Numbered from the stretch's first letter, positions 1,331 through 50,623 are shown. The stretch: DNA of 64,000 nucleotides from a virus (IMGVR_UViG_3300002220_000285); one strand, 5' to 3'. Program-made: numbers and translations. Notes: a model not told the origin generated them from the letters alone.

Positions 1331-1591
1331 ATGTTCCGCACCGGCCGCACCCGTCGCACCCTCCAGCCCCGCGCCTTCGTTTGCTACTGGGATTTCCAGG
1401 GCACGACTGTCGCCAACCGCACAACGACCCTTGCATCGGCTCGCAAACAAGCCGACCGCCGCCCGATGGGGTACGTGGTGGACACCCGAACCCATCGGAC
1501 CGTCTACCTCTCGGACTCCGCCCGCTCGCGCCTTGCTCGGCGCCTGGGAACCGGGATGGATTCCGTGAACGCCCTGCTGGCCCTTGCCTGA
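1331..1591 (+). CDS. hypothetical early protein (86 aa, basic, Arg-rich)
   Basis: ORF with GAGGAG SD 7 nt upstream; stop abuts palindrome at 1593. Confidence 0.6.
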   Translation: MFRTGRTRRTLQPRAFVCYWDFQGTTVANRTTTLASARKQADRRPMGYVVDTRTHRTVYLSDSARSRLARRLGTGMDSVNALLALA

Positions 1592-1592
1592 C

Positions 1593-1607
1593 CCCTAACC
1601 GTTAGGG
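1593..1607. repeat. intergenic palindrome CCCTAACCGTTAGGG
   Basis: Exact copy, followed by ATTGCCTCAGCGATCCCTGCACTACTTTTGGAGAGTCTC leader. Confidence 0.6.
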
Positions 1608-1648
1608 ATTGCCTCAGCGATCCCTGCACTACTTTTGGAGAGTCTCAA

Positions 1649-1828
1649 ATGGAAGTCGAAACCGCCCTGATGCTGTCCCCGCTGGAGCAGGCCGTGCTGA
1701 AGCAGGCCCTGCTCGTTCAGCGCAGCAACCTCTCCGCCGTCCTGGATTCGCTGGACAGTCGCAACTGCTTCCGCTCCTCGCTGAAACAGGAACTCGAGGT
1801 GGTGCGCGCCTTGCTGGAGCGCGTGTGA
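1649..1828 (+). CDS. hypothetical small protein (59 aa; below ORF-track cutoff)
   Basis: ATG 7 nt after CTACTTTTGGAGAGTCTCAA leader; uninterrupted frame checked codon by codon; TGA overlaps next ATG (TGATG). Confidence 0.55.
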   Translation: MEVETALMLSPLEQAVLKQALLVQRSNLSAVLDSLDSRNCFRSSLKQELEVVRALLERV

Positions 1829-2016
1829 TGGAAGACGCCCCCGTGATGATGCTGCACCTGACGGACGCACAAGCAAACCTGATTGGGTTTGCCTTGCGCG
1901 CCCTGATTCGATCGCACAGCGTGGAAATCTCCAAACTCTCGAATGCCGAGGAGATCAAGGCGCTCGCCCACGAGATCGCCGAAGCCGACGTTCTGCTTCG
2001 GGAGATTTACGAGTGA
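1828..2016 (+). CDS. hypothetical small protein (62 aa)
   Basis: Internal ATG of track ORF 1609..2016 chosen because of TGATG coupling with upstream gene. Confidence 0.55.
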   Translation: MEDAPVMMLHLTDAQANLIGFALRALIRSHSVEISKLSNAEEIKALAHEIAEADVLLREIYE

Positions 2017-2135
2017 TGTCGATGACGACTGCCTACGTTCTCGGTTCGACCTTGTTTCTGGTCTGGCTTCCGATCTACCTCCTGTTCCGGGACGGGGACG
2101 ACTTCGTCCCCTCCGACGACAACGACAACCCCTAA
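2016..2135 (+). CDS. small hydrophobic membrane peptide (39 aa, MSMTTAYVLGSTLFLVWLPIYLLF...)
   Basis: TGATG-coupled start; single predicted TM helix; TAA stop lies inside the palindrome at 2130-2144. Confidence 0.5.
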   Translation: MSMTTAYVLGSTLFLVWLPIYLLFRDGDDFVPSDDNDNP

Positions 2136-2144
2136 CCGTTAGGG
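2130..2144. repeat. intergenic palindrome CCCTAACCGTTAGGG
   Basis: Exact copy containing TAA stop of upstream peptide gene; followed by CTCTACTTCTGGAGAGTCTC leader. Confidence 0.6.
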
Positions 2145-2183
2145 GTCGCAGCGGCGATCCCTGCTCTACTTCTGGAGAGTCTC

Positions 2184-2285
2184 ATGCAGAACCTGGAATT
2201 CGTTTGGCCCCTCATTCTGGTGGTGGGTGGGGTGTTTCTGCTCGCGCTGATCGCGCTGATGGCTGGCGCCAATGGAAGGGACTGA
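2184..2285 (+). CDS. small hydrophobic membrane peptide (33 aa, MQNLEFVWPLILVVGGVFLLALIALMAG...)
   Basis: ATG 6 nt after GGAGAGTCTC; one TM helix; frame verified. Confidence 0.5.
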   Translation: MQNLEFVWPLILVVGGVFLLALIALMAGANGRD

Positions 2286-2287
2286 CA

Positions 2288-2557
2288 ATGGAACTGATTA
2301 CGCTGGCGAAGGTGTTCTGCGCCCTCGTGCGCCTCGCCGCCTCTCAAGCTGGAGTGGATGCTGCGGATACCGACCCGGACGACTACTGCGACTCCAACCT
2401 GGTGATGGCTGCCGCCTTTACCGCGGTCATGGGGCGTCCCCCCGTGCTGCCTTCCGAGGTGGAGGCCGATCCCCACCTTGCCCAGCAGGAGGACTCGGAC
2501 CTCGCCCTGTGGAACGGCGCCTACGGTATGTCTAGGTACTGCCTGTATCAACTGTGA
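2288..2557 (+). CDS. hypothetical protein (89 aa)
   Basis: Internal ATG of track ORF 1943..2557 directly after upstream TGA. Confidence 0.5.
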   Translation: MELITLAKVFCALVRLAASQAGVDAADTDPDDYCDSNLVMAAAFTAVMGRPPVLPSEVEADPHLAQQEDSDLALWNGAYGMSRYCLYQL

Positions 2558-2560
2558 CCC

Positions 2561-2598
2561 GGACGGGGACGACCGCTCACCCGCTGTCGTCCCCGTCC
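2561..2598 (+). terminator. GC-rich hairpin GGACGGGGACGA...TCGTCCCCGTCC (12-bp stem) fused to palindrome
   Basis: Perfect 12-bp inverted arms 2561-2572 / 2587-2598 right after stop of 2288..2557; no U-run. Confidence 0.4.
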
Positions 2599-2611
2599 CT
2601 AACCGTTAGGG
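2597..2611. repeat. intergenic palindrome CCCTAACCGTTAGGG
   Basis: Exact copy. Confidence 0.6.
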
Positions 2612-2625
2612 ATTGCCTCAGCGAT

Positions 2626-2638
2626 CCCTAACCGTTAG
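2626..2638. repeat. degenerate half-copy CCCTAACCGTTAG(cc)
   Basis: Second tandem copy 15 nt after previous one, right arm mutated. Confidence 0.4.
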
Positions 2639-2660
2639 CCCCTTACCTATGGAGTACCTC

Positions 2661-3332
2661 ATGAACGACCTGACCCGCAACATCGCCGCCGCCCGCATCC
2701 TCATGTTCGGGGGCCACCGCGCCGTCTCCAAGGACACGCTGGCCGCGGCGCTGGCGAGCGTCGATCCCGACACCTTCTTCGAGGTCGTCCAGCGGTACGT
2801 GAACGATTACGAAACCAATCAGGAACCCGATCAGGAACCCGTCCCGAAGGAGTCGAATTCCGATTCCGATTGCGGCCCCGTCCCCGTCCCCGCCAGGCGT
2901 TATTCGCTGACGTCCCCGCCGCCGTCCCCGTTCGATGGGGAGGAGGCGCTCAAGGAGTTTAACTTCCGCCTTCAGGATGAGCTTTTGGAGCGGGTGACGG
3001 GGGACAACCTCGCCCAGTCCTATGTCGCCTTGCTGCACGCCAACACGGCTGTCTTCTGCATGGGGGTGCGCGCTCACTTCGCCGATCTTACGGTGACGGA
3101 AGCTCTCGAGCTGTTCAAACTCCTCACCTCCACCTTGCCAGACTGGATGCTGGGGGATTCCGCTTACGCCCCTGCACGCCTCAGTCATGAGGAGCAGGGG
3201 GAATGGGCGAAGTCCTTCCGTAACCTCGAGATTCTGGAGTCGTACATCAGCTTCTTGATGACGACGGAGATCGGTTACTGGAGGAGTATGTCCGATATGC
3301 GCAGCTACTGCAGGTTCTTGTTCGAGGACTGA
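2661..3332 (+). CDS. hypothetical protein (223 aa)
   Basis: ATG preceded by GGAG; track ORF 2613..3332 same frame. Confidence 0.6.
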   Translation: MNDLTRNIAAARILMFGGHRAVSKDTLAAALASVDPDTFFEVVQRYVNDYETNQEPDQEPVPKESNSDSDCGPVPVPARRYSLTSPPPSPFDGEEALKEFNFRLQDELLERVTGDNLAQSYVALLHANTAVFCMGVRAHFADLTVTEALELFKLLTSTLPDWMLGDSAYAPARLSHEEQGEWAKSFRNLEILESYISFLMTTEIGYWRSMSDMRSYCRFLFED

Positions 3333-3358
3333 AGCAGGAGCAGGGGACGCCTGGCGTC

Positions 3359-3373
3359 CCCTAACCGTTAGGG
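3359..3373. repeat. intergenic palindrome CCCTAACCGTTAGGG
   Basis: Exact copy, followed by CCTACTTTTGGAGG leader. Confidence 0.6.
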
Positions 3374-3394
3374 AACCTACTTTTGGAGGTGAAG

Positions 3395-4219
3395 ATGAAA
3401 TACGAACTGATCCCGGAAGGCGACCTGTTCAGGCTGCGCGCCTTGAAAGCCTTTGGGGATGTGCGGGAAGGGGAGCTGGGAGGCCTTGTTCAGGGGCCTG
3501 AGAACCTCTCACAAGAGGGCCTGTGCTGGGTCGCCGGGAACGCTCGCGTCTACGGGGACGCTCGCGTCTACGGGGACGCTCGCATCTACGGGAACGCTCG
3601 GGTCTACGGGGGCGCTGAGGTCTCCGGGAGCGCTCAGGTCTACGGGGGCGCTCGGGTCTTCGGGAACACTGAGGTCTCCGGGAGCGCTCAGGTCTTCGGG
3701 AACACTGAGGTCTCCGGGAGCGCTCGCGTCTCCGGGAGCGCTAGGGTCTACGGGAACGCTCGCGTCTCCGGGAGCGCTCGGGTCTACGGGAGCGCTCGGG
3801 TCTACGGAAACTCTCGAGTCTACGGAAACTCTGACGTCTCCTGGTGCGCTTGCGTCTACGGGGACGCTAAGGTCTACGGGGACGCTCTCGTCAACGGTAA
3901 CGCTTGCGTCTCCGGGGACGCTTGCGTCTCCGTAGACGCTCATGTCTACGGGGACGCTCGGGTCTGCGGGAGCGCTCTGGTCTGCGGAAGAGACTTCCTG
4001 CTAGTCGGCCCGCTCGGCTCGCGCTCCTCCACGCTCACGATTACCCGCAACAGTGAGGGTACTCTGCTGTTTTCCACTGGATGCTTCCACGGCACCCTCG
4101 ACGAATTCGTCGCCGCCGTGAAAGAAGAGCACGAAGGTAACCAACACGAATTCGATTACCTCGCCGCGGTTGATCTGGCTAGGGTTATTTCTAGAAGTTG
4201 GCCCAACCCTAACCGTTAG
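3395..4219 (+). CDS. beta-helical hexapeptide-repeat protein (~25 repeats A-R-V-Y-G-[DNGS]; bactofilin-like V-x-G periodicity)
   Basis: Protein is ~25 consecutive 6-aa repeats (ARVYGD, ARIYGN, AEVSGS, AQVFGN...) flanked by non-repeat N- and C-terminal domains; encoded by 18-bp DNA tandem repeats. Confidence 0.7.
   Translation: MKYELIPEGDLFRLRALKAFGDVREGELGGLVQGPENLSQEGLCWVAGNARVYGDARVYGDARIYGNARVYGGAEVSGSAQVYGGARVFGNTEVSGSAQVFGNTEVSGSARVSGSARVYGNARVSGSARVYGSARVYGNSRVYGNSDVSWCACVYGDAKVYGDALVNGNACVSGDACVSVDAHVYGDARVCGSALVCGRDFLLVGPLGSRSSTLTITRNSEGTLLFSTGCFHGTLDEFVAAVKEEHEGNQHEFDYLAAVDLARVISRSWPNPNR
3532..3990. repeat. 18-bp tandem DNA repeat array (~25 units, consensus GGGGACGCTCGCGTCTAC) incl. 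an exact 36-bp duplication
   Basis: Visible periodicity; exact 36-mer GGGAACACTGAGGTCTCCGGGAGCGCTCAGGTCTTC occurs twice in tandem (~3662-3733). Confidence 0.8.
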
Positions 4220-10477: not shown

Positions 10478-10932
10478 AAGTCAAAGTCGCTGAGGCCGAG
10501 GGCATCGTCCTCGACTGGCTGGTGGCGAAGTGCGAAGGGTTGACCCCAACGCTACATAAGAACCCATATGGCTATTGGGTGATGCCAAATATCCCTGGTA
10601 GTTACTCGACCGACTGGTCCCTCGGTGGGCCGATCATCGAGAAAGCCAACATCACCATTATCCGCGCAAACGATGAGTATGAGGTGGACGCAAAGGGGCT
10701 CTCCACCAGCAAGCCTATCCCCTGCTGGTTCGCTGAGTGCAGCCGTTGGACCGGGCACTCCCTGACCACCAGCTACGAAGGTGAGAGCATGGAACCAACC
10801 TTCATGATCGGGGAGTTGGATGGCTGTTACGGAGCCACCCCGCTCATCGCAGCCATGCGCTGCCTTTGTTGTAGTAAACTCGGCGATGTTGTAGACATTC
10901 CGGAGGAACTATGCCAGCAGCAAAGAAGTTAG
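10474..10932 (+). CDS. hypothetical protein (152 aa)
   Basis: ATGA overlap. Confidence 0.55.
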   Translation: MKVKVAEAEGIVLDWLVAKCEGLTPTLHKNPYGYWVMPNIPGSYSTDWSLGGPIIEKANITIIRANDEYEVDAKGLSTSKPIPCWFAECSRWTGHSLTTSYEGESMEPTFMIGELDGCYGATPLIAAMRCLCCSKLGDVVDIPEELCQQQRS

Positions 10933-11597
10933 ACGGTCAGGTGTTTGGACGCTTAACGGTGTTAAACCGCAGTGGGAATCTTGGTGGACGGGTCTTATGG
11001 TCATGCCAGTGCGCGTGTGGAAGATTGCATGAAGCAGTCAGTCATGCGCTTACGTCAGGGCATACAAAGTCCTGCGGCTGCTGGAAAGACGAGCGCAACA
11101 CCTCGACACCCTCAATTCACGGACACGCATCACGAGCTAAAGGTATTAGCCCTACCTACCGGACCTGGCAATGCATGATTACTCGCTGCACTAATGTGTC
11201 TGTTAAGTCATACAAAGACTATGGGGCGCGAGGCATATCTGTATATGCAGGTTGGCTAGTGTTTGAGAACTTTCTTGCCGACATGGGTGAGAAACCATCA
11301 GGCATGTCAATTGAGCGTATGGATAACGAAAAGGGCTACGGGCCGGATAACTGCAAGTGGGCCACCAAGATAGAACAGGCGCGAAATACTCGCGCTAACA
11401 AGTTCATCAGCTACAAAGGAAAACGCATGACACAAGCTGAATTCGCAGAGGTTATTGGACATAACCAATCAACAGTAAGTTATCGACTACGTTCCGGATG
11501 GACTCCTGAGCAAGTTGCTAACACACCTGCAAACCCAGGCAACCGTGTGGCCGACAAGCTGGGTGACGAGGTAGACGTCCCTGAGGAGCTGCTATGA
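10911..11597 (+). CDS. HNH-family homing endonuclease-like protein, paralogue 1 (N-terminal CxCxCG zinc motif, C-terminal ...GYGPDNCKWATKIEQARN)
   Basis: Shares FGRLTV / CxCxCG / YxxYGGRGI / NC[KRQ]WAT motifs with ORFs at 35644, 39595, 41748. Confidence 0.65.
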   Translation: MPAAKKLDGQVFGRLTVLNRSGNLGGRVLWSCQCACGRLHEAVSHALTSGHTKSCGCWKDERNTSTPSIHGHASRAKGISPTYRTWQCMITRCTNVSVKSYKDYGARGISVYAGWLVFENFLADMGEKPSGMSIERMDNEKGYGPDNCKWATKIEQARNTRANKFISYKGKRMTQAEFAEVIGHNQSTVSYRLRSGWTPEQVANTPANPGNRVADKLGDEVDVPEELL

Positions 11598-16049: not shown

Positions 16050-17060
16050 ATGAGCTTCCCTAGCAACCCCTTCAATACTGCCACCATCCCCTTCGACCTC
16101 GAGCCTGTCCAGCGGCTCACCAAGGACCTCAAAACTGCGGCGCGCACCCTGCACGACGACGAGGCTCGATTCCTGGTCGACTACTACTACATCGCACAAG
16201 AAGACCGGAAGCGTTCCGGCAATCAGGTCCTCGCCCTCGGCGACAACTCGGAACCCAACTCGGTTCTCAAGTGGTTGTTCGACCAGTCGGCGAGCCTTGA
16301 GGATCAAATCAAGAAGGCCTTGGATTCCTACACCCAGTCTCACCCAATGGGCGCCTGGATGCGCAGCATCTACGGCATCGGTCCGGTGATCTCAGCGGGC
16401 CTGCTGGCGAACATCGACATCGAGCAGGCGCCGACCGTGGGTCACATCTGGAGGTTCGCAGGTTTGGACCCCACCGTCATCTGGAAGAAGACAGAGGACG
16501 TTGAGAAGGACGTCGCCGCGGTCAAGGAGATGGACGAGGTTGCCATCATCCGCCTTGCCAAGGAGTACGGACGGAACCCGGAAAACCTGATCAAGCGGTC
16601 CCGCAACGATAAGGGAGAACTTGACCGCAAGGAGCTGAAGCGCGCCCTTGCCATGCGTCCGTGGAACGCCTCGCTCAAAACTTTGCTTTGGAAGGCTGGG
16701 CAAAGCTTTATGAAGTTCTCAGGCCGGGACGAGTGCGTCTACGGCAAGGTCTACCTGAAGCGCAAGGCCTATGAGATCGAGCGCAATGAGGCAGGTGGTA
16801 ATGCTGTGGCGGCTGCGGCCGGGGCCAAACGTGTCGGCAAGTCTACCGATGCCTACGGTCACTACAGCAACGGCAAGCTGCCGCCCGCGCAGATTGATGC
16901 TCGAGCGCGGCGCTATGCGGTCAAGTTGTTCGTCGCTCACCTGCATGACGCCTGGTATCGGATTCACTTCGAGAAGGAGCCGCCGCTGCCGTACCCGATC
17001 GCCATCCTGGGTCACGCCCACCTGATTACCCACGAAGACCTGAACAGGAAAGCTGCATAA
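16050..17060 (+). CDS. helix-hairpin-helix DNA-binding protein (336 aa); HhH segment resembles IS110-family transposase C-terminal region but lacks RuvC/DEDD and SG catalytic motifs
   Basis: SIYGIGPVISAGLLANI...RFAGLDP matches the GIGP..A..L.AEI...F...GL.P HhH pattern; ATG after CCTACTTTTGGAGTAACGA leader. Confidence 0.55.
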   Translation: MSFPSNPFNTATIPFDLEPVQRLTKDLKTAARTLHDDEARFLVDYYYIAQEDRKRSGNQVLALGDNSEPNSVLKWLFDQSASLEDQIKKALDSYTQSHPMGAWMRSIYGIGPVISAGLLANIDIEQAPTVGHIWRFAGLDPTVIWKKTEDVEKDVAAVKEMDEVAIIRLAKEYGRNPENLIKRSRNDKGELDRKELKRALAMRPWNASLKTLLWKAGQSFMKFSGRDECVYGKVYLKRKAYEIERNEAGGNAVAAAAGAKRVGKSTDAYGHYSNGKLPPAQIDARARRYAVKLFVAHLHDAWYRIHFEKEPPLPYPIAILGHAHLITHEDLNRKAA

Positions 17061-18351: not shown

Positions 18352-18710
18352 ACGCAAGACCAGAAGACCTCGCCTACATGGACCTGATCGACCTGAAGGA
18401 ACTGGAACGCCAGGCCTACATCGACGGGCAGCGGCTGCTGGGTGCAGCGGTCAACCGAATCATCGACGAGATCGAGGCTGCCGAAGAGGACAGGGAGGCC
18501 CTGGATGCGGCGGTCGGCGCGGAGTCTGGACTGCAGGCCACTTACGACGACCTGTGCAGCATGGTCGAGACGGTCCTTGATTTGATCCGGGTCCGAGAGA
18601 CGGAGGAGGGGGAGTATGAGTACTACCTGTATGACGACGGATGGGTGTTGAAGAACCTGTTCGATGAGAGGGGCATGAATATGCCGAAACTGGAGGTGAC
18701 CAGTGAGTAA
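18336..18710 (+). CDS. hypothetical acidic protein (124 aa)
   Basis: ATG (or GTG at 18348 overlapping stop) in frame with track ORF 18069..18710. Confidence 0.5.
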   Translation: MEPPVNARPEDLAYMDLIDLKELERQAYIDGQRLLGAAVNRIIDEIEAAEEDREALDAAVGAESGLQATYDDLCSMVETVLDLIRVRETEEGEYEYYLYDDGWVLKNLFDERGMNMPKLEVTSE

Positions 18711-19161
18711 CTACGCAACTTTCCTTGTGCCGGGGTTGGACGGGGACGTCTCAATCGAGGTTTGCTTCGATGACTACTTCTCTGAAGACGAGGTGAGGGA
18801 GTCCCTCGGGGTTACCGAGAACTGGGAACCGATCGTGTCAGAGGTAGACGGCGCTGCGGCTGAGGCTGCCACAGACGGAGAGAAGTTCGACTTCGACAGG
18901 TACTTCGACCTTGAGAAGCTGGACGACGATGTGCTAGAGGCCTACCAGGCGTGCGTCGGCAGCCCTAGCTCCGCTGCGGAGGTGGAGGACGCCTACATCG
19001 GCCACTACGATTCTGACCGAGACTTCGCCTGGGAGCTGCTAGAGAGTCTGGGAGCTTTCGAGGCCTGGGAGGCGCTGCCCTACTACATCGACTACGACAA
19101 GTTGGTGCGTGACCTCGAGATCGACTACTCCCACCACAACGGCCACTGGTTCCGGCCGTAG
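18703..19161 (+). CDS. ardA: ArdA-like antirestriction protein (acidic DNA mimic)
   Basis: 152 aa, strongly acidic; C-terminal ...LPYYIDYDKLVRDLEIDYSHHNGHWF resembles the ArdA family signature as recalled; GTG start after GGAGGTGAC. Confidence 0.55.
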   Translation: MSNYATFLVPGLDGDVSIEVCFDDYFSEDEVRESLGVTENWEPIVSEVDGAAAEAATDGEKFDFDRYFDLEKLDDDVLEAYQACVGSPSSAAEVEDAYIGHYDSDRDFAWELLESLGAFEAWEALPYYIDYDKLVRDLEIDYSHHNGHWFRP

Positions 19162-19978: not shown

Positions 19979-20371
19979 ATGAAATTTGCTGTTCGTCGGA
20001 CCAGCATGAAGCGATTCGAGATTTTCTTCTCCGGCGGTCTTTACGCCGGAAAGCGGGTTGGGGAGGCAGACGTCGTTCGCCTGACCAACACCGTGATCCA
20101 CACCAACAACCGGCCGATGGCGGTCGGGTCGATTCAAGCGGTCTGGGGGTTGGTTGTGGACCCCGCGCTCGAGCTGACTCGAATGGTGCTGTACGAAGTT
20201 GGCATCAACAAACCTTTCACCACGTTGCGCAACGCCAGGCGGGGACGCTTCCTCGCGCGAGACAAGGAGCTTGCACTGTGTCATGAGACAGGTATACTGC
20301 CGTTCGCTTCCGTCCTTCAGCTTGAAGAGGACGGGTTCGTCTACTCACTACATAAGAAGAACATCAAATGA
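19979..20371 (+). CDS. hypothetical protein (130 aa)
   Basis: ATG after CTTACTTTCGGAGACTTGC leader. Confidence 0.55.
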   Translation: MKFAVRRTSMKRFEIFFSGGLYAGKRVGEADVVRLTNTVIHTNNRPMAVGSIQAVWGLVVDPALELTRMVLYEVGINKPFTTLRNARRGRFLARDKELALCHETGILPFASVLQLEEDGFVYSLHKKNIK

Positions 20372-20715
20372 GTGAGACTACCTACGATTTCCCTCGTCTG
20401 TGTTCAGACCTGTACTCCCAATGGCAGGACCTGCAGACCCAGCATCAGAACACCGAGATGCTGCTCCAGCATCTGATCACTCTGTACGAGGTCCTTCAGA
20501 AGTTCACAGAGTACGTCCCTGAGGATGTGCAGAACTCCGTACAGAGTCAAATGCTTGAGGCCTCCTCGTTTGTGGTCGCTTACTGCCGTAAGCATCAGGC
20601 GGTCAGCGTATCTCACCTTGCCGCGGGTAACCTGTTCAAGGAGCTGCTTGACGGCATGAAGGCTGCACAGGCGATCCAGGACGTAGCGGAGAAGGTTGGC
20701 TACGGACGCGCCTGA
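20368..20715 (+). CDS. hypothetical protein (115 aa)
   Basis: ATGA overlap. Confidence 0.55.
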   Translation: MSETTYDFPRLCSDLYSQWQDLQTQHQNTEMLLQHLITLYEVLQKFTEYVPEDVQNSVQSQMLEASSFVVAYCRKHQAVSVSHLAAGNLFKELLDGMKAAQAIQDVAEKVGYGRA

Positions 20716-20736
20716 TTCTACTTTTGGAGATGATTC

Positions 20737-21087
20737 ATGAGTTCCCTCATGCCGAAGGACTGGCTCGATGCCGGTTACAAGCGGTTCCCTACCAGTAAAG
20801 ACCCTGTTTTAGGCCGCATGGCCGACTTCGGCCTGCAGCGCAAAGTCGCCGATGACAGAGGTATCTGCTACTTCCTTACGGTCTATGTCTATGACTGGAC
20901 CAAAGACCCCCCAATACCGGGTCGTAAAGGATGGGCGTTCATGCCTGAGCTTTACTTCACTGCGAAGACGTTTCCATCTATGGACATCACGTTTCGTGCG
21001 GACGACCTCAGTATTCAGGAGATCGAGGAGTACGTGCGTCGACTCTGGATCAAGCTGGACTGCCCCTACTACGAGTATTTCGAGTAA
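20737..21087 (+). CDS. hypothetical protein (116 aa)
   Basis: ATG after CTACTTTTGGAGATGATTC leader. Confidence 0.55.
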   Translation: MSSLMPKDWLDAGYKRFPTSKDPVLGRMADFGLQRKVADDRGICYFLTVYVYDWTKDPPIPGRKGWAFMPELYFTAKTFPSMDITFRADDLSIQEIEEYVRRLWIKLDCPYYEYFE

Positions 21088-21103
21088 CACAAGGAGAAGA
21101 AGA

Positions 21104-21373
21104 ATGGACAACCAACACCGAAAGATCAAAGGTTACCGGGAACTCTCCGTCGAGGAGATTGCCGTGATGAACAGAATCAAGGAGAAGGGGGCGGAGCTTC
21201 GTAGCCTCATCGAGGAGGTGAACAGTCACCTGGATCGGGGACTTGATGACGAGGAGGTCTGCGACCGCATTAGCCAGGCAGATGCCTACTTCTGGCTCAA
21301 CAGCGCGGAAGCCGACTTGAAGGTCGGCATCATGAAATTGGTGCGTGCTGTTGCCCAACCGGAGGGCTTCTGA
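21104..21373 (+). CDS. hypothetical protein (89 aa)
   Basis: ATG after AAGGAGAAGAAGA; internal start of track ORF 20852..21373. Confidence 0.5.
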   Translation: MDNQHRKIKGYRELSVEEIAVMNRIKEKGAELRSLIEEVNSHLDRGLDDEEVCDRISQADAYFWLNSAEADLKVGIMKLVRAVAQPEGF

Positions 21374-21714
21374 TGGACCTCGAGCAACTGAAGTTGGTCA
21401 TCACCAGCATGGAGGGCGTCGTCGGGAAGCTCTCCGAGGGCGCCGTACTCTGGCTGGGCCTTCACTACATCGTGGAGACGATCAAGGCGCTGGGGTGGAT
21501 TCTGGTGCCGACGATCATCGTTACAAGCATCGTTCGGGCGATCGCCGGTACTACCGAATCCTGTGAAGCATGGAAATCGGTAGCCGTGCAGTTGGGCCAA
21601 ATCAACCCGCACCCTTACTACGAATCATCGCGTGCTGCGGTCACCAAGAGGTTGCAGGACCTTCTGGACGCTGAGCGCGAAGTTAAGCGCCTTGCCAAGG
21701 AGGGCAAGAAATGA
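21373..21714 (+). CDS. small inner-membrane protein (2 TM; NfeD-like partner candidate)
   Basis: Hydrophobic helices; ATG overlaps upstream TGA. Confidence 0.5.
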   Translation: MDLEQLKLVITSMEGVVGKLSEGAVLWLGLHYIVETIKALGWILVPTIIVTSIVRAIAGTTESCEAWKSVAVQLGQINPHPYYESSRAAVTKRLQDLLDAEREVKRLAKEGKK

Positions 21715-21902
21715 AGCACGCCATCATGATTTTGTTTGTCGCCTTCTGTTTCTACTGCGGGTGGCAGGTCGCACCTAGAGACATTCGGGACACAGTGAAA
21801 ACGCTTGTCCGAAAGCACGCCACATTCACGTTGGCAACGATTCTTCTCTGCGCCCTCGCTGTTGTCCTTGCCTATTACCTCACCGCTACCAAAGTCCTCT
21901 AA
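21711..21902 (+). CDS. small membrane protein (63 aa, 2 TM)
   Basis: ATGA overlap; MKHAIMILFVAFCFYCGW... Confidence 0.5.
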   Translation: MKHAIMILFVAFCFYCGWQVAPRDIRDTVKTLVRKHATFTLATILLCALAVVLAYYLTATKVL

Positions 21903-21912
21903 GGAACCCAAC

Positions 21913-22728
21913 ATGAAAAAGATCATCCTCGCCGCTGCCGTCATCTTCCTCGGCGCCTGCTCCCAGATCGATACCGGCAACGTCGGTGTCGAGCGAACCC
22001 TCGGCAAGGTCAGCGAGACGCCGCTGCCGCAGGGTCTCTACTTCACGCTGTTCAAGACGGTCGATGAGTTCACCGCGAAGGAGGTCAGCTTCGCACTGAA
22101 CGACCTGACGCCGAAGTCGAAGGACAACCTGACGATGCGAGACGTCGACATCGACGTCTACTACAAGGCTGCGCCCGCGGCGATCCCGAAGTTGGTGACC
22201 AAGTACCAGGGCGACATCGCCAAGGACAAGAGCGGGGATTCCATCGCAGCTTGGGGACGAGTCACCCGTGAGGGTCGGGAGGCGGCATACCGTGCCGTGT
22301 CGGAACTGGACGCTACCACGATGCACACCCAGCGCACGGAGCTTGCTGAGTCGATCCGTCAGAAGCTGCAAGCGGGCCTGGAGGAAACCGATCCCGGCGC
22401 CTTCCTGGTTACTAGCGTGAACGTCCGTAGTCTCGTCACCGATCCTGCAATCGAGAAGGCGATCCGAGAGCGGGCGGAGATGGACCAGCAGGTCGAGCGC
22501 AAGAAGAAGGAACTGGAGCTTGCCAAGGCTGAGGCAGAGCGGCGCGAAGTTGAGGCGCGGGGCGAGGCGCGGGCTAACGACATCATCAGCTCGTCGCTGA
22601 CCCAGTCGCTGAAGGAGATCAAGCTGGCGGAGATCGCCCGTGATACCGCGTTCGCTGTGTCGAAGGGCGCTGGGAACACTGTGCTGCTTCAGGGCGGCGC
22701 GATGCCCCTGATCAACGTAGGCAAGTAA
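21913..22728 (+). CDS. SPFH/band-7 (stomatin/prohibitin/HflC-like) lipoprotein
   Basis: Lipoprotein signal MKKIILAAAVIFLGAC (lipobox LGAC); band-7-like core followed by E/A/R-rich coiled-coil (ERKKKELELAKAEAERREVEARGEARA). Confidence 0.65.
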   Translation: MKKIILAAAVIFLGACSQIDTGNVGVERTLGKVSETPLPQGLYFTLFKTVDEFTAKEVSFALNDLTPKSKDNLTMRDVDIDVYYKAAPAAIPKLVTKYQGDIAKDKSGDSIAAWGRVTREGREAAYRAVSELDATTMHTQRTELAESIRQKLQAGLEETDPGAFLVTSVNVRSLVTDPAIEKAIRERAEMDQQVERKKKELELAKAEAERREVEARGEARANDIISSSLTQSLKEIKLAEIARDTAFAVSKGAGNTVLLQGGAMPLINVGK

Positions 22729-22730
22729 GC

Positions 22731-23015
22731 ATGTTTTCCCTTGGTACGCTGCTGAGGGAAGGGGGTGAGGATTGGGAGGTTGTCGGAATCACGTTCACTG
22801 GCGGGGAGCGCTACTACATGCTCCTCGCCACCGATCGTAGTTGCTCCCTCCTCAGTCCCGCTTTTATGGTCGAGACCTACACGGTCATCGGCCACATTGA
22901 CCAAAACAAAAAGAACAGAGGTCATGATGGAACCTTCCTGCCACCTGTTGTGGTTCGCTTTCCTGATCCCGCTGGCGATGCTGGTATGGATGCACCTCGA
23001 GAACAGGGCGATTGA
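22731..23015 (+). CDS. hypothetical protein (94 aa); overlaps next ORF in another frame
   Basis: ATG 2 nt after SPFH stop; N-terminal half looks protein-like; C-terminal half may be out-of-frame overlap. Confidence 0.35.
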   Translation: MFSLGTLLREGGEDWEVVGITFTGGERYYMLLATDRSCSLLSPAFMVETYTVIGHIDQNKKNRGHDGTFLPPVVVRFPDPAGDAGMDAPREQGD

Positions 23016-23121
23016 GAAGCTGATTGCTGAACTCAACCTGGAAATCACCAGGGTTGAACTTGCCTATGCAGAAGACAAAGCTGCAGAGGACCTACTTAAG
23101 GAGAAACAGAATGCTGAGTGA
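22924..23121 (+). CDS. small membrane protein with TM helix plus coiled-coil (65 aa)
   Basis: MMEPSCHLLWFAFLIPLAMLVWMHL then charged helical tail. Confidence 0.4.
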   Translation: MMEPSCHLLWFAFLIPLAMLVWMHLENRAIEKLIAELNLEITRVELAYAEDKAAEDLLKEKQNAE

Positions 23122-23506
23122 GATGCAAGGGGACAACTACCTCCGGGAGCAAGAGCGCAGGGACGCTGCTCTAGAGGCTAGGGAGGAGTCTCAGGAGAAG
23201 TGCTACATGAAGGCGTATGCCTCCGTCTACCCTCTCGTTCGTCAAGAAGTGATGGACGCCTGCATGATGAACGCCCTGATCCCCGAAGGGAAGTACGGCA
23301 GGTATGCCGCGGGGTACGCTGCTGTCAACGCAGTCACCTACGCGGTGGAAGACCTTGAAGATATTCAGAGCCTGATCCGACCGAACGGGGACATCACCAA
23401 AATCTACGCCGCCTACGCCCACTACGTCGCAAACGAAGAGGCGGAGTATGTCGCGGAGCGAGCAGTGGCGGCGCTCGAGATTCTGATGGAGGGGGATGAG
23501 GTATGA
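23111..23506 (+). CDS. hypothetical protein (131 aa)
   Basis: ATG after AAGGAGAAACAGA; internal start of track ORF 23024..23506. Confidence 0.5.
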   Translation: MLSEMQGDNYLREQERRDAALEAREESQEKCYMKAYASVYPLVRQEVMDACMMNALIPEGKYGRYAAGYAAVNAVTYAVEDLEDIQSLIRPNGDITKIYAAYAHYVANEEAEYVAERAVAALEILMEGDEV

Positions 23507-24771
23507 AGCACGTTTACGATACGCTGCTGGCTCTGGCTGCGACGACGAAGAAAAACGAGAAGCAGCAGATTCTCAGGGACAACGGCACCCCAGAGTTCCG
23601 GCAGGTGCTACGACTTGCTTTGGACCCGTTCACCATGTACGGATTCAAGAAGCTGCCAGAGCACCTCGAGAGCGGGGACGGGGACTTCAACGAAGGCACT
23701 CTCCAGCTTCTGATCGCCCTTCACCACAAGGAGCTGACCGGAAACGCGGCGAAAGCTGCGGTCTCTGAGGAGCTGTCCCGCCTTGCCCCCGAGGACCGTG
23801 AGGTGTTCAAGCGCATCCTGCTCAAGGACCTGCGCGTCGGGATCGATGCGAAGAGTGTGAACTCGGTGTTCCCCCGCCTTGTTCCGACGTTCTCCGCGAT
23901 GCTGGCCGAACCGTTCGATGCGGCTCGAGTCAAGGCGTGGCCCGTCATGGTCCAGCCCAAGCTAGACGGGGTCCGGGTGCTGGTGTTCGTCGATCCGATC
24001 AAGGGGACAGCCAAGTTTCTGTCTCGCAGTGGCAAGGAATTCACTTCGTTCGACGACCTGGCGCAACCCTCCGTTGCACTGGCTCGCCGCCTGTACGGCC
24101 CGAACTTTCCTGATGGGGGCATCGTGCTGGACGGGGAGGTCATCACCAGTGACTTCCTTTCGACAGTGAGCGAGGTCCGTAGGAAGAACAAGACCTCAGA
24201 GAACGCCGTGCTGCACGTGTTCGATGCGGTCCCTGAGTCCCTGTACCGCGGCTACAGCCACCACCCCGTCAGCCAGGTCACGCGATACGAGATTCTGCAA
24301 GCCGGGGTCTCCCAGATCGACACCGACCGGATTCGCATGATCCGAAATTCGCTTGCTCACTCTACTGAGGAAGTGTATGACGCCTACGAGCGAGTCAGGG
24401 ATCAGGGAGGTGAGGGCGTCATCGTCAAGGATATGTCTGCACCATACGAGTGCAGGCGCACCTACAGTTGGATGAAGATCAAGGACTGTCAATCGGTGGA
24501 TGTCCCGATCGTCGATGTCGAGCGCGGTACTGGAAAGTATGCGGACTGCGCTGGCGCCGTTGTCATCGAGTTCGAGGGGGTGCGCGTTAGTGTCGGCTCT
24601 GGTCTGACTGACGCCCTGAGGCATGACCTGTGGCATCTGCACCAGACCTCCCCTTCCGAGGTACTTGGTCGCATCGTGGAGGTGGAGTACCATGAAAAGA
24701 CAGCCTACGGGTCACTGCGGCACCCGCGGTTCGTGAGGTTCCGAGATAGTCTGACTGGCGATAAAGAGTGA
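23503..24771 (+). CDS. lig: ATP-dependent DNA ligase
   Basis: KLDGVR adenylation motif (KxDG), 422 aa, ATGA-coupled start. Confidence 0.85.
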   Translation: MKHVYDTLLALAATTKKNEKQQILRDNGTPEFRQVLRLALDPFTMYGFKKLPEHLESGDGDFNEGTLQLLIALHHKELTGNAAKAAVSEELSRLAPEDREVFKRILLKDLRVGIDAKSVNSVFPRLVPTFSAMLAEPFDAARVKAWPVMVQPKLDGVRVLVFVDPIKGTAKFLSRSGKEFTSFDDLAQPSVALARRLYGPNFPDGGIVLDGEVITSDFLSTVSEVRRKNKTSENAVLHVFDAVPESLYRGYSHHPVSQVTRYEILQAGVSQIDTDRIRMIRNSLAHSTEEVYDAYERVRDQGGEGVIVKDMSAPYECRRTYSWMKIKDCQSVDVPIVDVERGTGKYADCAGAVVIEFEGVRVSVGSGLTDALRHDLWHLHQTSPSEVLGRIVEVEYHEKTAYGSLRHPRFVRFRDSLTGDKE

Positions 24772-24816
24772 TCAACAGGGCCGCTACCCAGCGGCCCACT
24801 ACTTGTGGGGACACGT

Positions 24817-31360: not shown

Positions 31361-31436
31361 GCGCCCTTAGCTCAGCGGAGAGAGCAACGGCTTTCTAATC
31401 CGTAGGTCGCTGGTTCGATTCCAGCAGGGCGTGCCA
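31361..31436 (+). tRNA. tRNA-Arg (anticodon UCU)
   Basis: Manual cloverleaf: acceptor GCGCCCT/AGGGCGT (G1-U72 wobble), D-stem GCTC/GAGC, anticodon loop TTTCTAA, T-arm GCTGG-TTCGATT-CCAGC, encoded CCA. Confidence 0.85.
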
Positions 31437-40390: not shown

Positions 40391-41299
40391 GTGCGCTACT
40401 TATCAGTGGCGAGCGGCATCGAGGCTGCATCTGTTGCCTGGTCGCCGCTCGGCTGGAGAGCCGTTGGGTTCTCCGAAATCGAGCCTTTCCCTTCTCGTCT
40501 TCTCCAACACCACTACCCCGACGTCACGAACTTCGGGGACATGAATAATTACAAGGAGTGGGATGTTGAACCCTTCGACGTACTCATCGGCGGAACGCCC
40601 TGCCAGTCCTTCTCCAGTGCCGGTCTGCGACGAGGATTGGACGACCCGCGTGGCAATCTGGCCCTCGTCTTTTGCGGCCTTGTTGATCGATTCCGGCCGC
40701 GGTATGTCATCTGGGAAAACGTCCCCGGTGCCTTGTCATCGAGCGGAGGACGGGACTTTGGTTCCATCGTCGGGGCGCTGGTCGAACTCGGGTATGGCGT
40801 GTGCTGGCGAGTCCTGGACGCTAAGCATTTCGGAGTCGCCCAGCGGCGCCGTAGAGTGTTTCTTGTCGCAAGTGTTGACGGTTGGCATCGCGCCGCCGCA
40901 ACTCTTTTTGAGTCCGAGAGCAGCCTCCGGAATCCTGCGCCGCGCCGCCAACGTCAAGAAGAGCTTGCACCCCCGCTTAAGAAAGGCTTTGGAGACGGTC
41001 GCGGCAGCGACGATCCCTTGTGCTGGTGGGACGGAGGACAACTGAGTCAGACGGCCGATGCCGTGCTCTACAAGAAGCAGACGATGCCTGAGAAGAATCG
41101 CTTCCCGGCCTGCTTCGAGGGTGAGCACGTGCGGTTCCTGATGCCCGAGGAGTGGGAACTGTTGCAAGGGTTCCCGTGGGGCTACACGGATGTCCCCGGC
41201 GCTTTAGCTTCGGATCGGTACAAGGCGCTTGGCAATTCCTTCCCCGTCCCTGTCATTCGCTGGTTGGGCGAGCGCATTCAATTTGTGGAGTCTCTATGA
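40391..41299 (+). CDS. DNA (cytosine-5)-methyltransferase
   Basis: Motif I-like SVASGIEAAS, motif IV GGTPCQSFSSAG, motif VI ENV; GTG start after GAGGG. Confidence 0.8.
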   Translation: MRYLSVASGIEAASVAWSPLGWRAVGFSEIEPFPSRLLQHHYPDVTNFGDMNNYKEWDVEPFDVLIGGTPCQSFSSAGLRRGLDDPRGNLALVFCGLVDRFRPRYVIWENVPGALSSSGGRDFGSIVGALVELGYGVCWRVLDAKHFGVAQRRRRVFLVASVDGWHRAAATLFESESSLRNPAPRRQRQEELAPPLKKGFGDGRGSDDPLCWWDGGQLSQTADAVLYKKQTMPEKNRFPACFEGEHVRFLMPEEWELLQGFPWGYTDVPGALASDRYKALGNSFPVPVIRWLGERIQFVESL

Positions 41300-41751
41300 G
41301 CCTAGGTAGGTACAAGAAATTTGTCCCCGTCGTCCTGTCCGTTGCCAGCATGAGCAAGGACAGGTCGACGAAGGTGGGTGCAATCGCGCTGGGTCCGGAC
41401 CTCGAGATCAGGTCGGTCGGCTACAACGGGTTCCCCCGCGGCGTCAACGATGACGATGACGCACGGCACGAGCGCCCTACGAAACTTTTCCTCACTGCCC
41501 ATGCGGAAAGCAATGCTGTGGCGCAAGCGGCACGCTCTGGGGTGTCGCTTGCCGGATGCACCGTTATGGTTAGTTCTCTTTACCCCTGCTCTACATGCGC
41601 AAAAATGCTAATTCAAGCGGGGGTTACTCGGGTCCTTGCTGTCGGGGTTAACCACGAGAGTATGTCTAGATGGGCTGAAGAGTGGTCCTACTCCAAGGTG
41701 ATGTTTGAAGAGGCGGGGGTGGAATTTTGCGAGTTAAAGGAACAAGGTTGA
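41296..41751 (+). CDS. dCMP deaminase
   Basis: HAESNAV zinc-binding motif and PCSTCAKM; ATGA overlap with methyltransferase stop. Confidence 0.75.
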   Translation: MSLGRYKKFVPVVLSVASMSKDRSTKVGAIALGPDLEIRSVGYNGFPRGVNDDDDARHERPTKLFLTAHAESNAVAQAARSGVSLAGCTVMVSSLYPCSTCAKMLIQAGVTRVLAVGVNHESMSRWAEEWSYSKVMFEEAGVEFCELKEQG

Positions 41752-42368
41752 TTGACATCTCCGGGCAAAGGTTCGGAAGGCTTACCGTGCTAGAGATTTC
41801 TAGGCGTGAGCGACTCTCCAGGGGAACTTTGGTGTTTTGGAAGTGCGGCTGTGATTGTGGAAATACTATTGAGGTGAGAGGCCAGGCGCTCCGCACAGGG
41901 ACAACCAAATCGTGTGGGTGCCTGCGCAACGAACTGACGGGAGATCGCTCCAGAACCCACGGTCGATCTAAAACACCTACGCACAACTCATGGCGGGCGA
42001 TGAGGGAGAGATGCCAGAACCCGAAGAACGTCGCCTACAAGAATTATGGAGGGAGGGGCATCTCCGTATGCAAAAGGTGGGAGGAGTTCGAGGGGTTCTT
42101 GGAGGATATGGGCGAGCGCCCAGAGGGCACCACCTTGGAGCGTAGAGATGTTCAAAAAGGTTACTCCCCTGATAACTGCGTCTGGCTGGAGGCTAAAAAA
42201 CAATGCGAAAACACGACTAGGTCTCGAAAAATAGAGTTCAATGGCGAGACCCGATTGCTCAGGGACTGGGCGAAATCGTTAGGCATCACCAGTACCGCTT
42301 TGTCAGTAAGGCTGAGGCGCTACCCTAAAAATATAGCTATGACTCGAGGGCGATACGATTTCCGATAG
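41748..42368 (+). CDS. HNH-family homing endonuclease-like protein, paralogue 4
   Basis: TTG start (alternatively 41727); FGRLTVL, WKCGCDCG, YGGRGISVCKRW, RRDVQKGYSPDNCVWLE motifs. Confidence 0.55.
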   Translation: MIDISGQRFGRLTVLEISRRERLSRGTLVFWKCGCDCGNTIEVRGQALRTGTTKSCGCLRNELTGDRSRTHGRSKTPTHNSWRAMRERCQNPKNVAYKNYGGRGISVCKRWEEFEGFLEDMGERPEGTTLERRDVQKGYSPDNCVWLEAKKQCENTTRSRKIEFNGETRLLRDWAKSLGITSTALSVRLRRYPKNIAMTRGRYDFR

Positions 42369-46818: not shown

Positions 46819-47030
46819 TCCCCTTCCAAGAGGTGTGCAAACGGCTGGGGATTGTGGAGCGGACGGGATACAACAAGGTCTACCGCAAGTGTTTCCCCGT
46901 CCCTATCAAGAAGGTGGATGGCAGAAATTACGTGCTGTCCACCGATCTTGAGAATTACTTCGACTCCTTGTCCTTGCCTTCGGCCCCGCCTCCCCGGCGC
47001 CGGGGCCGACCCTCCCGCACTTGCGTCTGA
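46803..47030 (+). CDS. AlpA/Xis-family HTH protein (putative excisionase/regulator)
   Basis: LIPFQEVCKRLGIVERTGYNKVYRKCFPVPIKKVDGRNYVLSTDLENYF fits the AlpA pattern; overlaps integrase 3' end convergently. Confidence 0.6.
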   Translation: MYPHLIPFQEVCKRLGIVERTGYNKVYRKCFPVPIKKVDGRNYVLSTDLENYFDSLSLPSAPPPRRRGRPSRTCV

Positions 47031-50612: not shown

Positions 50613-50623
50613 TGTTTTTGTCC

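Follow-up and report, generated by a model that had tools for sequence, protein, structure and literature searches.

An SPFH lipoprotein gene and a gene for a small transmembrane hairpin are paired in phages and in Burkholderiales chromosomes

Introduction

The virus-derived DNA IMGVR_UViG_3300002220_000285, whose whole analysed stretch of 64,000 nucleotides is referred to here as the window, encodes a lipoprotein of the SPFH/band-7 superfamily directly downstream of a gene for a 63-amino-acid protein that is predicted to form a two-helix membrane hairpin. We propose that the functional unit is a two-gene cassette comprising an inner-membrane hairpin and a lipid-anchored, periplasm-facing SPFH protein, and that it acts as a phage-supplied envelope scaffold that maintains or redirects membrane-protein homeostasis. 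With its structural components included, we judge this proposal to be about evenly balanced between right and wrong. The feature itself is far beyond what chance would produce, given the domain E-values and the synteny conserved in about 70 independent loci. The window is a segment of a phage genome and carries hallmark genes for a tape measure protein (1551 amino acids), a tail J-like protein, PolA, a helicase, a primase and SbcCD.

Phage SPFH proteins have been listed since 2006, when they were recorded in the T4-like phages 44RR, Aeh1 and RB43 (PMC1524935). Vi01-like phages carry an annotated SPFH protein (PMC10892097), Burkholderia phage CSP3 carries an SPFH gene as a moron (PMC10269572), and the authors describing a schitovirus SPFH gene state that the reason for it 'remains unclear' (PMC13239085). 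Our literature searches for functional studies of phage SPFH proteins returned annotation-level mentions only. Moreover, we know of no client or function for most bacterial SPFH members. The lipoprotein described here is a new member of an already annotated family, phrog_200. What appears to be new is a conserved, unannotated 63-amino-acid hairpin partner, the replacement of a transmembrane (TM) helix by a lipid anchor, and a distribution shared between cells and phages.

The locus reveals a compact system of two genes that is found both in bacteria amenable to culture and in model-adjacent phages, namely Vi01-like phages of Salmonella and E. coli. It raises the questions of what a minimal periplasmic SPFH assembly encloses and why phages carry SPFH genes, and the cassette offers a tractable way into what is an open, not a central, problem. 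If true, a role in exclusion or counter-defence would represent a new mechanistic class, and a role in proteostasis would make the cassette a membrane-level auxiliary gene set.

The features of the cassette are as follows.

21711-21902 (+): hairpin, 63 amino acids; two TM stretches, a ribosome-binding site, and an ATGA start/stop overlap with the preceding open reading frame (ORF), orfA
21913-22728 (+): SPFH lipoprotein, 271 amino acids, with lipobox and Band_7 domain
21913-21960 (+): signal peptide and lipobox of the lipoprotein, MKKIILAAAVIFLGA followed by the lipobox Cys; the Cys16 codon is at 21958-21960
21964-22533 (+): SPFH/Band_7 domain, residues 18-207 (Pfam envelope)
22444-22665 (+): long helical region of coiled-coil type, residues 178-251 (DSSP on the AlphaFold2 model: H178-228 and H231-251)

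Results

A lipid anchor at the position of the usual TM helix

The 271-amino-acid lipoprotein (MKKIILAAAVIFLGAC) begins with a canonical signal that consists of a basic n-region (MKK), a hydrophobic h-region (IILAAAVIF) and a lipobox (LGA-C) matching [LVI][ASTVIG][GAS]C. For comparison, we assembled a motif-seeded set of loci composed of 56 from species-representative genomes, 26 from IMG/VR viral contigs, the contexts of two homologues, and Salmonella phage Vi01. A lipobox followed by the motif C[ST]QIDTGNVGVE is present in 83 loci, and the residues after the lipobox Cys, SQIDTGNVGVERTLGK, are invariant across the family. The mature N-terminus of the Vi01 protein reads C-G-G-V-I-D-E-G-N-V-G-V.

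Residue +2 of the mature protein is T in 45 of the 83 loci, S in 37 and G in one, and it is never D. The presence of Ser, Thr or Gly at this position, and not Asp, would direct the protein to the outer membrane by the E. coli rule, which may not hold in Burkholderiales. Glycine at +2 can keep lipoproteins in the inner membrane of E. coli.

Three distant relatives from gammaproteobacterial metagenome-assembled genomes (L054, 9601-10503; L055, 5606-6505; L056, 2889-3782) share 41-45% identity with the lipoprotein. Each carries a TM helix before the ETGNVGVERTLGK strand, exactly where the lipobox is otherwise located, and none has an upstream hairpin gene. These three cases fit an arrangement in which the lipid anchor took the place of the usual N-terminal TM helix of SPFH proteins and a separate hairpin came to supply the membrane element.

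Predicted fold and place within the SPFH superfamily

The protein matches Pfam Band_7 (PF01145) with an E-value of 1.5e-14 (54.9 bits against a gathering cut-off of 23.6) and phrog_200, annotated 'lipoprotein', with an E-value of 9.7e-42 (144 bits, residues 4-242). Its AlphaFold2 model has a mean predicted local distance difference test score of 68.9, with values of 70-90 in the core, and consists of an alpha/beta SPFH core followed by the two long helices. In alignments, a conserved C-terminal segment (GNTVLL...PL(I/V)xVGK) comes after the long helix. A Foldseek search of the PDB with this model yielded 54 matches at E <= 0.001; each of the 50 listed has an SPFH fold, and almost every one is a membrane cage protein. 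The best score belongs to human PHB1/2 (E 1e-9), with erlin, stomatin, HflK/C, flotillin and QmcA coming next, and the SPFH core aligns with the mouse stomatin SPFH domain with a template modelling score (TMt) of 0.75-0.81 at a root-mean-square deviation of ~3 A.

When the sequence profile is compared with the PDB, only prohibitins are matched (best E 7e-8), and the long helix aligns to the prohibitin coiled-coil. Identity to prohibitin does not exceed 18-20%, and the scores of erlin, stomatin and HflK/C are almost as good. Taken together, the profile matches and the predicted structure indicate that the protein is a member of the SPFH/band-7 superfamily with a prohibitin-like architecture. 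Orthology to HflK/C was ruled out, because the protein has no match at E <= 0.1 in NCBIfam, with its HflK and HflC models, because a lipobox replaces the TM anchor, and because the gene is single, with no K/C-type pair, in the window and in all loci.

The original prediction for this region, made from the sequence of the window, had called a phage-encoded lipoprotein with a lipobox, a band-7 core and a coiled-coil, and these features are borne out by the signal, the domain match with its predicted SPFH fold, and the long helix in the model. As for its description of the core as stomatin/HflC-like, stomatin and HflK/C are among the fold matches, with the prohibitins scoring somewhat better than HflK/C.

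The hairpin partner

The hairpin is predicted to comprise TM1 (residues ~3-22), a basic loop (R..R/K-H), TM2 (residues ~35-55) and a C-terminal AYYxxxxxL tail, and the positions conserved in its family are H3, Y15, W18, R/K35, H36, A54-Y55 and the terminal L. In most loci, a two-TM ORF of 55-70 amino acids ends between -4 and +24 nucleotides from the SPFH start; in Vi01, the 69-amino-acid hairpin overlaps the SPFH start by 1 nucleotide. A hidden Markov model of the hairpin was searched against six-frame ORFs from all loci and the window (~1.4 Mb), yielding 69 matches, of ~82 related loci. All 69 are located directly 5' of the SPFH gene on the same strand, and none lies elsewhere. Pairwise identities of the hairpin and of the SPFH protein are correlated across 65 loci (r = 0.76), and none of 999 Mantel permutations gave a value as high.

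A homologue search with the window hairpin as query recovered only the hairpin itself. A Pfam scan of 34 hairpin homologues gave scattered single matches at E > 0.001, with no family covering the hairpin. The chromosomal loci in which no hairpin was detected are L005, L007, L009, L011 and L012, which belong to the Acidovorax clade, together with L008, L023, L053, L045, L047-L049 and L059. We infer from this pattern that the hairpin was lost or replaced in some chromosomal lineages.

Because the hairpin recurs next to the SPFH gene and the other ORFs of the region are lineage-specific, the conserved unit is taken to be the hairpin plus the SPFH lipoprotein. The existence of a conserved third partner was rejected, since flanking genes vary by genus in bacteria and flanking membrane proteins are not recurrent in phages, where further membrane proteins occur beside the pair in 4 of 27 cases upstream and 5 of 25 downstream.

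Distribution of the pair in bacteria and phages

A 100% identical copy of the window SPFH protein and relatives with 85% and 71% identity occur on short metagenome contigs. Among the best 120 homologues, the bulk are from Burkholderiales (64-69% identity over the full length), and several of these reside on megabase contigs. The genes that neighbour the pair encode an EamA transporter, an AsmA-family protein, ArgJ, a DUF815 ATPase and an M1 peptidase in Undibacterium, a thiolase and a P450 in Roseateles/Pelomonas, argininosuccinate lyase in Hydrogenophaga, and DUF4401/GDYXXLXY proteins in Ideonella. These flanking genes are syntenic within a genus and different between genera, and the protein tree follows the genera. 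Judged by gene order and this tree, the Burkholderiales pair is a native, self-contained operon among housekeeping genes. One exception is found in Methylibium sp. (L003, 5799-8937), where the pair lies inside a prophage, ~1 kb from an integrase that abuts host RNase T and isc/hsc genes. By its gene neighbourhood, this position is moron-like, at a prophage end.

The cassette is also present in 26 IMG/VR contigs. Their neighbouring genes within 3.5-4 kb are enriched for integrases, Nin-region genes, SSB, recombinases (YqaJ, RecT, Sak, RdgC), CI/Cro-type regulators and nucleotide kinases, and by this gene content the neighbourhoods are early regions of temperate phages. No lysis family is found in the top 25 families among the 144 viral-contig neighbours. 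Outside Ackermannviridae, the family is practically absent from isolated phages; the 170 records in Ackermannviridae (39% identity) carry the annotation 'lipoprotein' or 'SPFH domain band 7 family protein'. Taken more broadly, SPFH folds are common among phages and giant viruses. A megablast search of window positions 20300-24800 against 50,697 deposited phage records gave no match, and there is thus no near-identical relative in that set.

In Vi01 (L004, 2143-3765), the pair is preceded by two genes with overlapping stops and starts. One of these encodes a homologue of the P22 gp17-type 'superinfection exclusion' protein (PF17420, E 6e-52), and the other encodes a 102-amino-acid LysM-domain protein that is annotated 'endolysin' and has no catalytic domain match.

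Mass spectrometry of virions detected 3 peptides of the Vi01-like SPFH homologue, compared with 196-311 for structural proteins (PMC10892097). A structural role in the virion, which the original prediction had named as one of two findings that would speak against it, was rejected on the basis of this low count and the location of the window gene in an early/replication operon. The other, a predicted structure lacking the band-7 fold, does not apply either, since the model has that fold.

A neighbour-joining tree was rooted on the TM-anchored relatives; it is distance-based with motif-seeded sampling, such that the direction of transfer between phage and host is not readable from it. Vi01 is the most basal branch (100/100 bootstraps), followed by a clade in which 20 of 21 members are viral (99/100), and several other viral contigs are likewise basal to the chromosomal clade. 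The window and a related phage, L001, pair together (100/100) as sister to the Methylibium prophage and the chromosomal Burkholderiales clade. The chromosomal grouping excludes the window in 75 of 100 bootstraps, and recent capture from a sampled host genus was rejected because the window copy nests inside this clade in only 3 of 100.

Selection on the SPFH gene

Between the window and L001, the SPFH gene exhibits 0.097 nonsynonymous (dN) and 1.09 synonymous (dS) substitutions per site, with a dN/dS of 0.089 and 85% amino acid identity. The corresponding values for the N-terminal 290 amino acids of the ligase encoded further downstream are a dN of 0.33, a dS of 1.78, a dN/dS of 0.185 and 64% identity. 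For the hairpin, dN is 0.70 and identity is 37%, and saturation of dS makes dN/dS not computable. The phage SPFH gene is therefore under strong purifying selection. In comparison with L092, which is more closely related to the window than L001 is, SPFH is again the best-conserved gene, with 97.9% nucleotide and 99% amino acid identity versus 92.2% nucleotide identity for the hairpin gene.

Operon context and neighbouring genes

The SPFH region lies inside a long plus-strand operon in which genes abut tightly or overlap. A scan of 18.5-25.6 kb revealed no promoter-like sites, and terminator-like sites in this interval are at or below the expectation from shuffled sequence. Gene calls are backed by ribosome-binding sites, by periodicity in G+C content at third codon positions (GC3), and by independent gene calls on metagenome copies. 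By GC3 periodicity, the SPFH gene, the hairpin and orfE all look coding. The other features relevant to this study are listed below.

18703-19161 (+): ArdA antirestriction homologue (PF07275, 35.9 bits against a cut-off of 27)
21104-21373 (+): Acb2/Tad1-like protein, 89 amino acids (PF24729, 38.8 bits against a cut-off of 27, E 1.1e-9; phrog_717, E 1e-13)
21373-21714 (+): orfA, 113 amino acids; one hydrophobic segment (residues ~38-58) and a charged C-terminal helix
22731-23015 (+): orfD, 94 amino acids, soluble; GC3 of 0.69 in its non-overlapping part
22924/22927-23121 (+): orfE, 64-65 amino acids; N-terminal TM segment followed by an amphipathic charged helix
23111-23506 (+): orfF, 131 amino acids; no family match, start overlapping the end of orfE
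23503-24771 (+): ATP-dependent DNA ligase, 422 amino acids (Pfam DNA_ligase_A_M, E 4.7e-19; DNA_ligase_OB_2, E 3.2e-15)
46955-48064 (-): tyrosine integrase (phrog_1, E 5e-48)
48678-48950 (-): 90-amino-acid protein with an N-terminal TM segment, a putative holin adjoining the endolysin gene
49022-49972 (-): endolysin (phrog_181, E 2.5e-57)

The ArdA homologue marks this stretch of the operon as an early region of counter-defence and host takeover. The Acb2/Tad1-like protein, by its family matches, is likely a cyclic-nucleotide sponge acting against the cyclic-oligonucleotide-based antiphage signalling system (CBASS) or Thoeris, and the stop of its gene overlaps the start of orfA in the same operon. 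On the other side of the cassette, the ligase gene opens a downstream replication block, with helicase, primase and polymerase genes further on. The encoded tyrosine integrase indicates that the phage is temperate, and the lysis region adjoins the integrase gene.

Scans of Pfam and PHROG assigned no family at meaningful E-values to orfA, orfD, orfE or orfF. An NCBIfam scan of six ORFs yielded nothing at E <= 0.1, and PADLOC gave no match for the small ORFs and only a spurious one (E 0.009) for the SPFH protein. orfA, which probably encodes a single-pass membrane protein as judged by its hydrophobicity, matched nothing in Pfam, PHROG, NCBIfam or PADLOC, and its relatives in a set of 5.8 billion proteins are limited to copies with 99% and 81% identity, that is, near-identical copies of the same phage. 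None of the 86 related loci, including L001 as the nearest divergent relative, contains a homologue of orfA, orfD, orfE or the two ORFs located 5' of the Acb2-like gene. The genes shared with the related phage (L001/L002) encode SPFH (85% amino acid identity), ligase (64-70%), orfF (~50%) and two further upstream proteins (42-43%). On the basis of these comparisons, orfA, orfD and orfE are lineage-specific and lie outside the conserved cassette.

The last 31 codons of orfD (92 nucleotides at the 3' end; 22924-23015) overlap orfE in another frame, and GC3 in this overlap is 0.84 in the orfE frame versus 0.32 in the orfD frame. The tail of orfD thus looks unconstrained. Gene callers disagree on other copies as to whether orfD is a gene, and orfE is called as a 64-amino-acid gene in several metagenome copies.

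The original prediction had treated five ORFs as one module, in which two small two-TM proteins in an NfeD/SPFH-like arrangement preceded the lipoprotein and a TM plus coiled-coil protein followed it. Only the hairpin and SPFH genes are conserved as a unit. The hairpin does have two TM stretches, but orfA has one clear segment. An identity as NfeD was rejected for both upstream proteins, since neither they nor the 34 hairpin homologues contain the NfeD OB-fold domain (PF01957), for which a 63-amino-acid hairpin is too short. Downstream, orfE does combine a TM segment with a charged helix, but orfD, an ORF that the prediction did not include, intervenes.

Several further observations concern the genome beyond the cassette. 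L092 (positions 1546-3948) and the window (21104-23506) are close phage variants with a mosaic pattern of conservation; orfA is the most diverged gene (82.5% nucleotide identity), with changes concentrated in its C-terminal half, which suggests local diversification or recombination. The SPFH operon also contains an IS110-family transposase-like gene (16050-17060, +; phrog_4285, E 4e-45; weak match to Pfam Transposase_20), and L001 has a Transposase_20-type gene at 1864-2862, upstream in the corresponding operon. Its presence in both phages suggests that it may be a fixed phage gene and not an active insertion sequence. Two HNH endonuclease paralogues (10911-11597, +, and 41727-42368, +; both phrog_374, E 2e-64 and 2e-68) and a DNA methyltransferase (40391-41299, +; phrog_116, E 2e-77) are dispersed across the early/replication region. 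A single tRNA-Arg gene (anticodon TCT; 31361-31436, +) lies among replication genes, and a second lipoprotein of 191 amino acids (LLAAC-GGGGGG...; 50070-50645, -) is encoded beside tail genes.

Discussion

A proposed role for the cassette

The SPFH proteins HflK/C, prohibitin, stomatin, erlin and flotillin all assemble into rings or cages attached to membranes. In the mechanism we propose for the cassette, processing by signal peptidase II would leave the SPFH protein tethered by its lipidated Cys16 directly beside the first beta-strand. The protein would then oligomerise via its long helix and C-terminal segment, building a ring or cage at the periplasmic side of the membrane, like prohibitin and HflK/C. 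The hairpin, whose basic loop leads to the prediction that its termini face the periplasm, may be the membrane-embedded component of this assembly or may mark the enclosed patch. Such an assembly could fence off a patch of membrane or some conserved client in the envelope; a membrane protease, for instance FtsH, is the most plausible client, although this identity is a guess. By expressing its own copy early, the phage might keep the homeostasis of the envelope and of membrane proteins at a setting that benefits infection.

The SPFH protein is extremely conserved in phages and bacteria alike, which suggests that its target is a conserved host component, either lipids or a conserved membrane protein, and not a fast-evolving phage protein. 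Co-orientation with the ArdA, Acb2/Tad1-like and replication genes, far from the lysis cassette, supports an early setting that is neither lytic nor structural.

Several points weigh against this scaffold proposal. The E. coli +2 rule would place the SPFH lipoprotein in the outer membrane, apart from an inner-membrane hairpin. Sequence change in the hairpin is 3-4 times as fast as in the SPFH protein, which is unusual for a tight stoichiometric partner, and 13 lipoprotein loci have no detectable hairpin within 10 kb, indicating that the partner is common and not strictly required. Physical association of the two proteins is something we infer from adjacency and co-divergence, and oligomerisation of the SPFH protein is expected from family behaviour only. 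Residues 12-52 of the AlphaFold2 model are of low confidence. Finally, no FtsH or other protease gene is found near the cassette in loci with annotated flanks.

Alternative explanations

Membrane proteostasis and superinfection exclusion were both raised in the original prediction as candidate roles, the first of them part of the proposal above. For exclusion, the SPFH lipoprotein and hairpin, expressed early, would occupy or reorganise the envelope and thereby block the ejection of incoming phage DNA across the inner membrane, by a logic analogous to that of T5 Llp, Cor, T4 Imm/Sp or HK97 gp15. That temperate phages encode a lipoprotein together with a small protein of the inner membrane, in regions of early or moron-like character, is what this explanation would lead one to expect. 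The Vi01 cassette lies two genes 3' of the gp17-type homologue, and the basal position of phage copies in the rooted tree is compatible with a host having domesticated a phage exclusion gene. However, Pfam, PHROG and PADLOC scans found no similarity to any known superinfection exclusion family, and our literature searches on phage SPFH proteins turned up no exclusion data. The SPFH protein is also extremely conserved, with an invariant N-terminal motif and a low dN/dS, and it is inherited vertically with genus-level synteny in free-living bacteria. Such slow vertical evolution fits the binding of a conserved host component, not an arms-race exclusion factor. We consider exclusion unlikely, yet credible enough to be kept in view.

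A related reading, which we regard as distinctly unlikely, is that the cassette was ancestrally a phage-borne 'split' periplasmic SPFH cage, with its TM part supplied as a separate mini-protein. Expressed early alongside ArdA and Acb2-type genes, it would shield the membrane from superinfecting phages or from membrane-attacking abortive infection (Abi) effectors, and it would later have been domesticated by Burkholderiales. This reading is drawn from the basal placement of Vi01, the predominantly viral clade and the other viral contigs, and the operon context is compatible with it.

In a counter-defence role, the cassette would be part of an early anti-defence block and would buffer the cytoplasmic membrane against pore-forming or membrane-disrupting Abi effectors, such as the TM effectors of CBASS, Pycsar and Thoeris-like systems. 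The pair does share its operon with ArdA and lies two genes 3' of the Acb2/Tad1-like sponge gene, and SPFH proteins such as flotillin and HflK/C are generally implicated in membrane integrity and stress. This argument, however, is drawn entirely from context. Other phages have recombination, Nin and immunity genes beside the cassette, not known anti-defence genes, and the cellular orthologues reside in housekeeping contexts and not in defence islands, with no PADLOC match. Furthermore, the SPFH domain is predicted to be periplasmic, whereas the majority of these effectors enter the membrane from the cytoplasm. We find this explanation improbable.

Another reading, which follows the framing of the original prediction, takes the cassette for a canonical NfeD-SPFH pair or for an orthologue of HflK/C with which the phage would directly imitate the way HflKC controls FtsH and the stability of lambda-type CII; the authors of the CSP3 study speculated likewise for their phage (PMC10269572). 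A small membrane protein encoded 5' of the SPFH gene in one operon, an SPFH domain that faces the periplasm as in HflK/C, and a temperate phage in which FtsH-dependent control of lysis and lysogeny would be meaningful are all in keeping with this idea. Against it, the absence of an NfeD domain in orfA and the hairpin, the absence of an NCBIfam HflK/HflC match, the single SPFH gene in place of a K/C pair, and the lipid anchor in place of an N-terminal TM helix refute membership in either family at the sequence level. Strictly lytic Ackermannviridae carry the same cassette. A link to FtsH is possible, but mimicry in this form seems quite improbable.

Lysis control was another role suggested by the original prediction. 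The hairpin, which resembles class II holins in size and two-TM topology, would act as such a holin or as a pinholin-like protein, and the lipoprotein would be a regulator or a spanin-like outer-membrane component. A coiled-coil lipoprotein with an inner-membrane partner does superficially recall spanins, and an Rz-like spanin is annotated ~3 kb upstream in Vi01. Nevertheless, the window has its own endolysin and adjacent TM protein (the putative holin) at 48.7-50.0 kb, 26 kb from the cassette and on the opposite strand. The pair exists as a stand-alone operon among housekeeping genes in many non-phage chromosomes, none of the lysis families appears among the top viral-contig neighbours, and a 271-amino-acid protein with an SPFH fold is unlike o-spanins. 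A function in lysis or its timing is thus very improbable.

Lastly, the proposal that the genes are neutral cargo, a host operon captured not long ago that does nothing for the phage, is scarcely credible: close full-length homologues (64-69% identity) do exist in Burkholderiales chromosomes, but the gene retains its low dN/dS between two phages with near-saturated synonymous sites, it is the best-conserved gene of the region relative to both L001 and L092, phage copies hardly ever nest in a sampled host genus, and the cassette recurs in many unrelated phages.

Comparison with known systems

One close counterpart of the window cassette is the chromosomal operon of Burkholderiales (Undibacterium, Roseateles/Pelomonas, Inhella, Hydrogenophaga, Ideonella, Methylibium), which encodes an SPFH protein with the same lipobox and, upstream, a hairpin of 59-63 amino acids. 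It differs in being cellular and vertically inherited with genus-specific housekeeping flanks, and the window copy branches outside that clade; our literature searches turned up no functional study of this operon. Among isolated phages, the phrog_200 lipoproteins of Ackermannviridae (Vi01-like Kuttervirus and Erwinia phages) share 39% identity over residues 4-193 and the motif C-x-x-[IV]-D-x-G-N-V-G-V, with a 69-amino-acid two-TM hairpin gene directly upstream. However, they form a distant basal branch, belong to strictly lytic myoviruses of enterobacteria, have a divergent C-terminal part (tblastn covers 70% of the query), and neighbour gp17-like superinfection exclusion and LysM genes.

The early phage lipoproteins T5 Llp and phi80/N15 Cor also act in the envelope, and this likeness is a functional analogy only. 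They are small receptor blockers with no relation in sequence or fold to the window protein, which is a 271-amino-acid scaffold-type protein with cellular orthologues. SPFH-NfeD operons (QmcA-YbbJ, YqiK-YqiJ and PH1511-PH1510) resemble the cassette in having a co-inherited small membrane protein gene immediately 5' of the SPFH gene, and the fold matches include the QmcA-YbbJ structure 8z5g. In contrast to the NfeD partners, the hairpin is a bare 63 amino acids with no OB-fold or protease domain, and QmcA and YqiK face the cytoplasm whereas the window protein is predicted to be exported.

The HflK/HflC-FtsH complex of E. coli is matched in fold (7vhq, 7wi3 and 9cz2) and, as a periplasm-facing SPFH cage of the inner membrane, provides a model for protease sequestration. 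The window protein differs from HflK/HflC in lacking the N-terminal TM helix, the K/C pair and an NCBIfam HflK/HflC match, and its association with FtsH is only a candidate one. The prohibitins PHB1/PHB2 are components of the mitochondrial inner membrane that regulate the m-AAA protease. They have an N-terminal TM anchor and form a hetero-oligomer of two paralogues, whereas the window system has a single SPFH gene, a lipid anchor and a separate hairpin. Nonetheless, the prohibitins offer the best profile and fold match, sharing with the window protein the SPFH domain, the long coiled-coil and the C-terminal segment, and their SPFH domain lies on the non-cytoplasmic side of the membrane, in the intermembrane space that corresponds to the periplasm.

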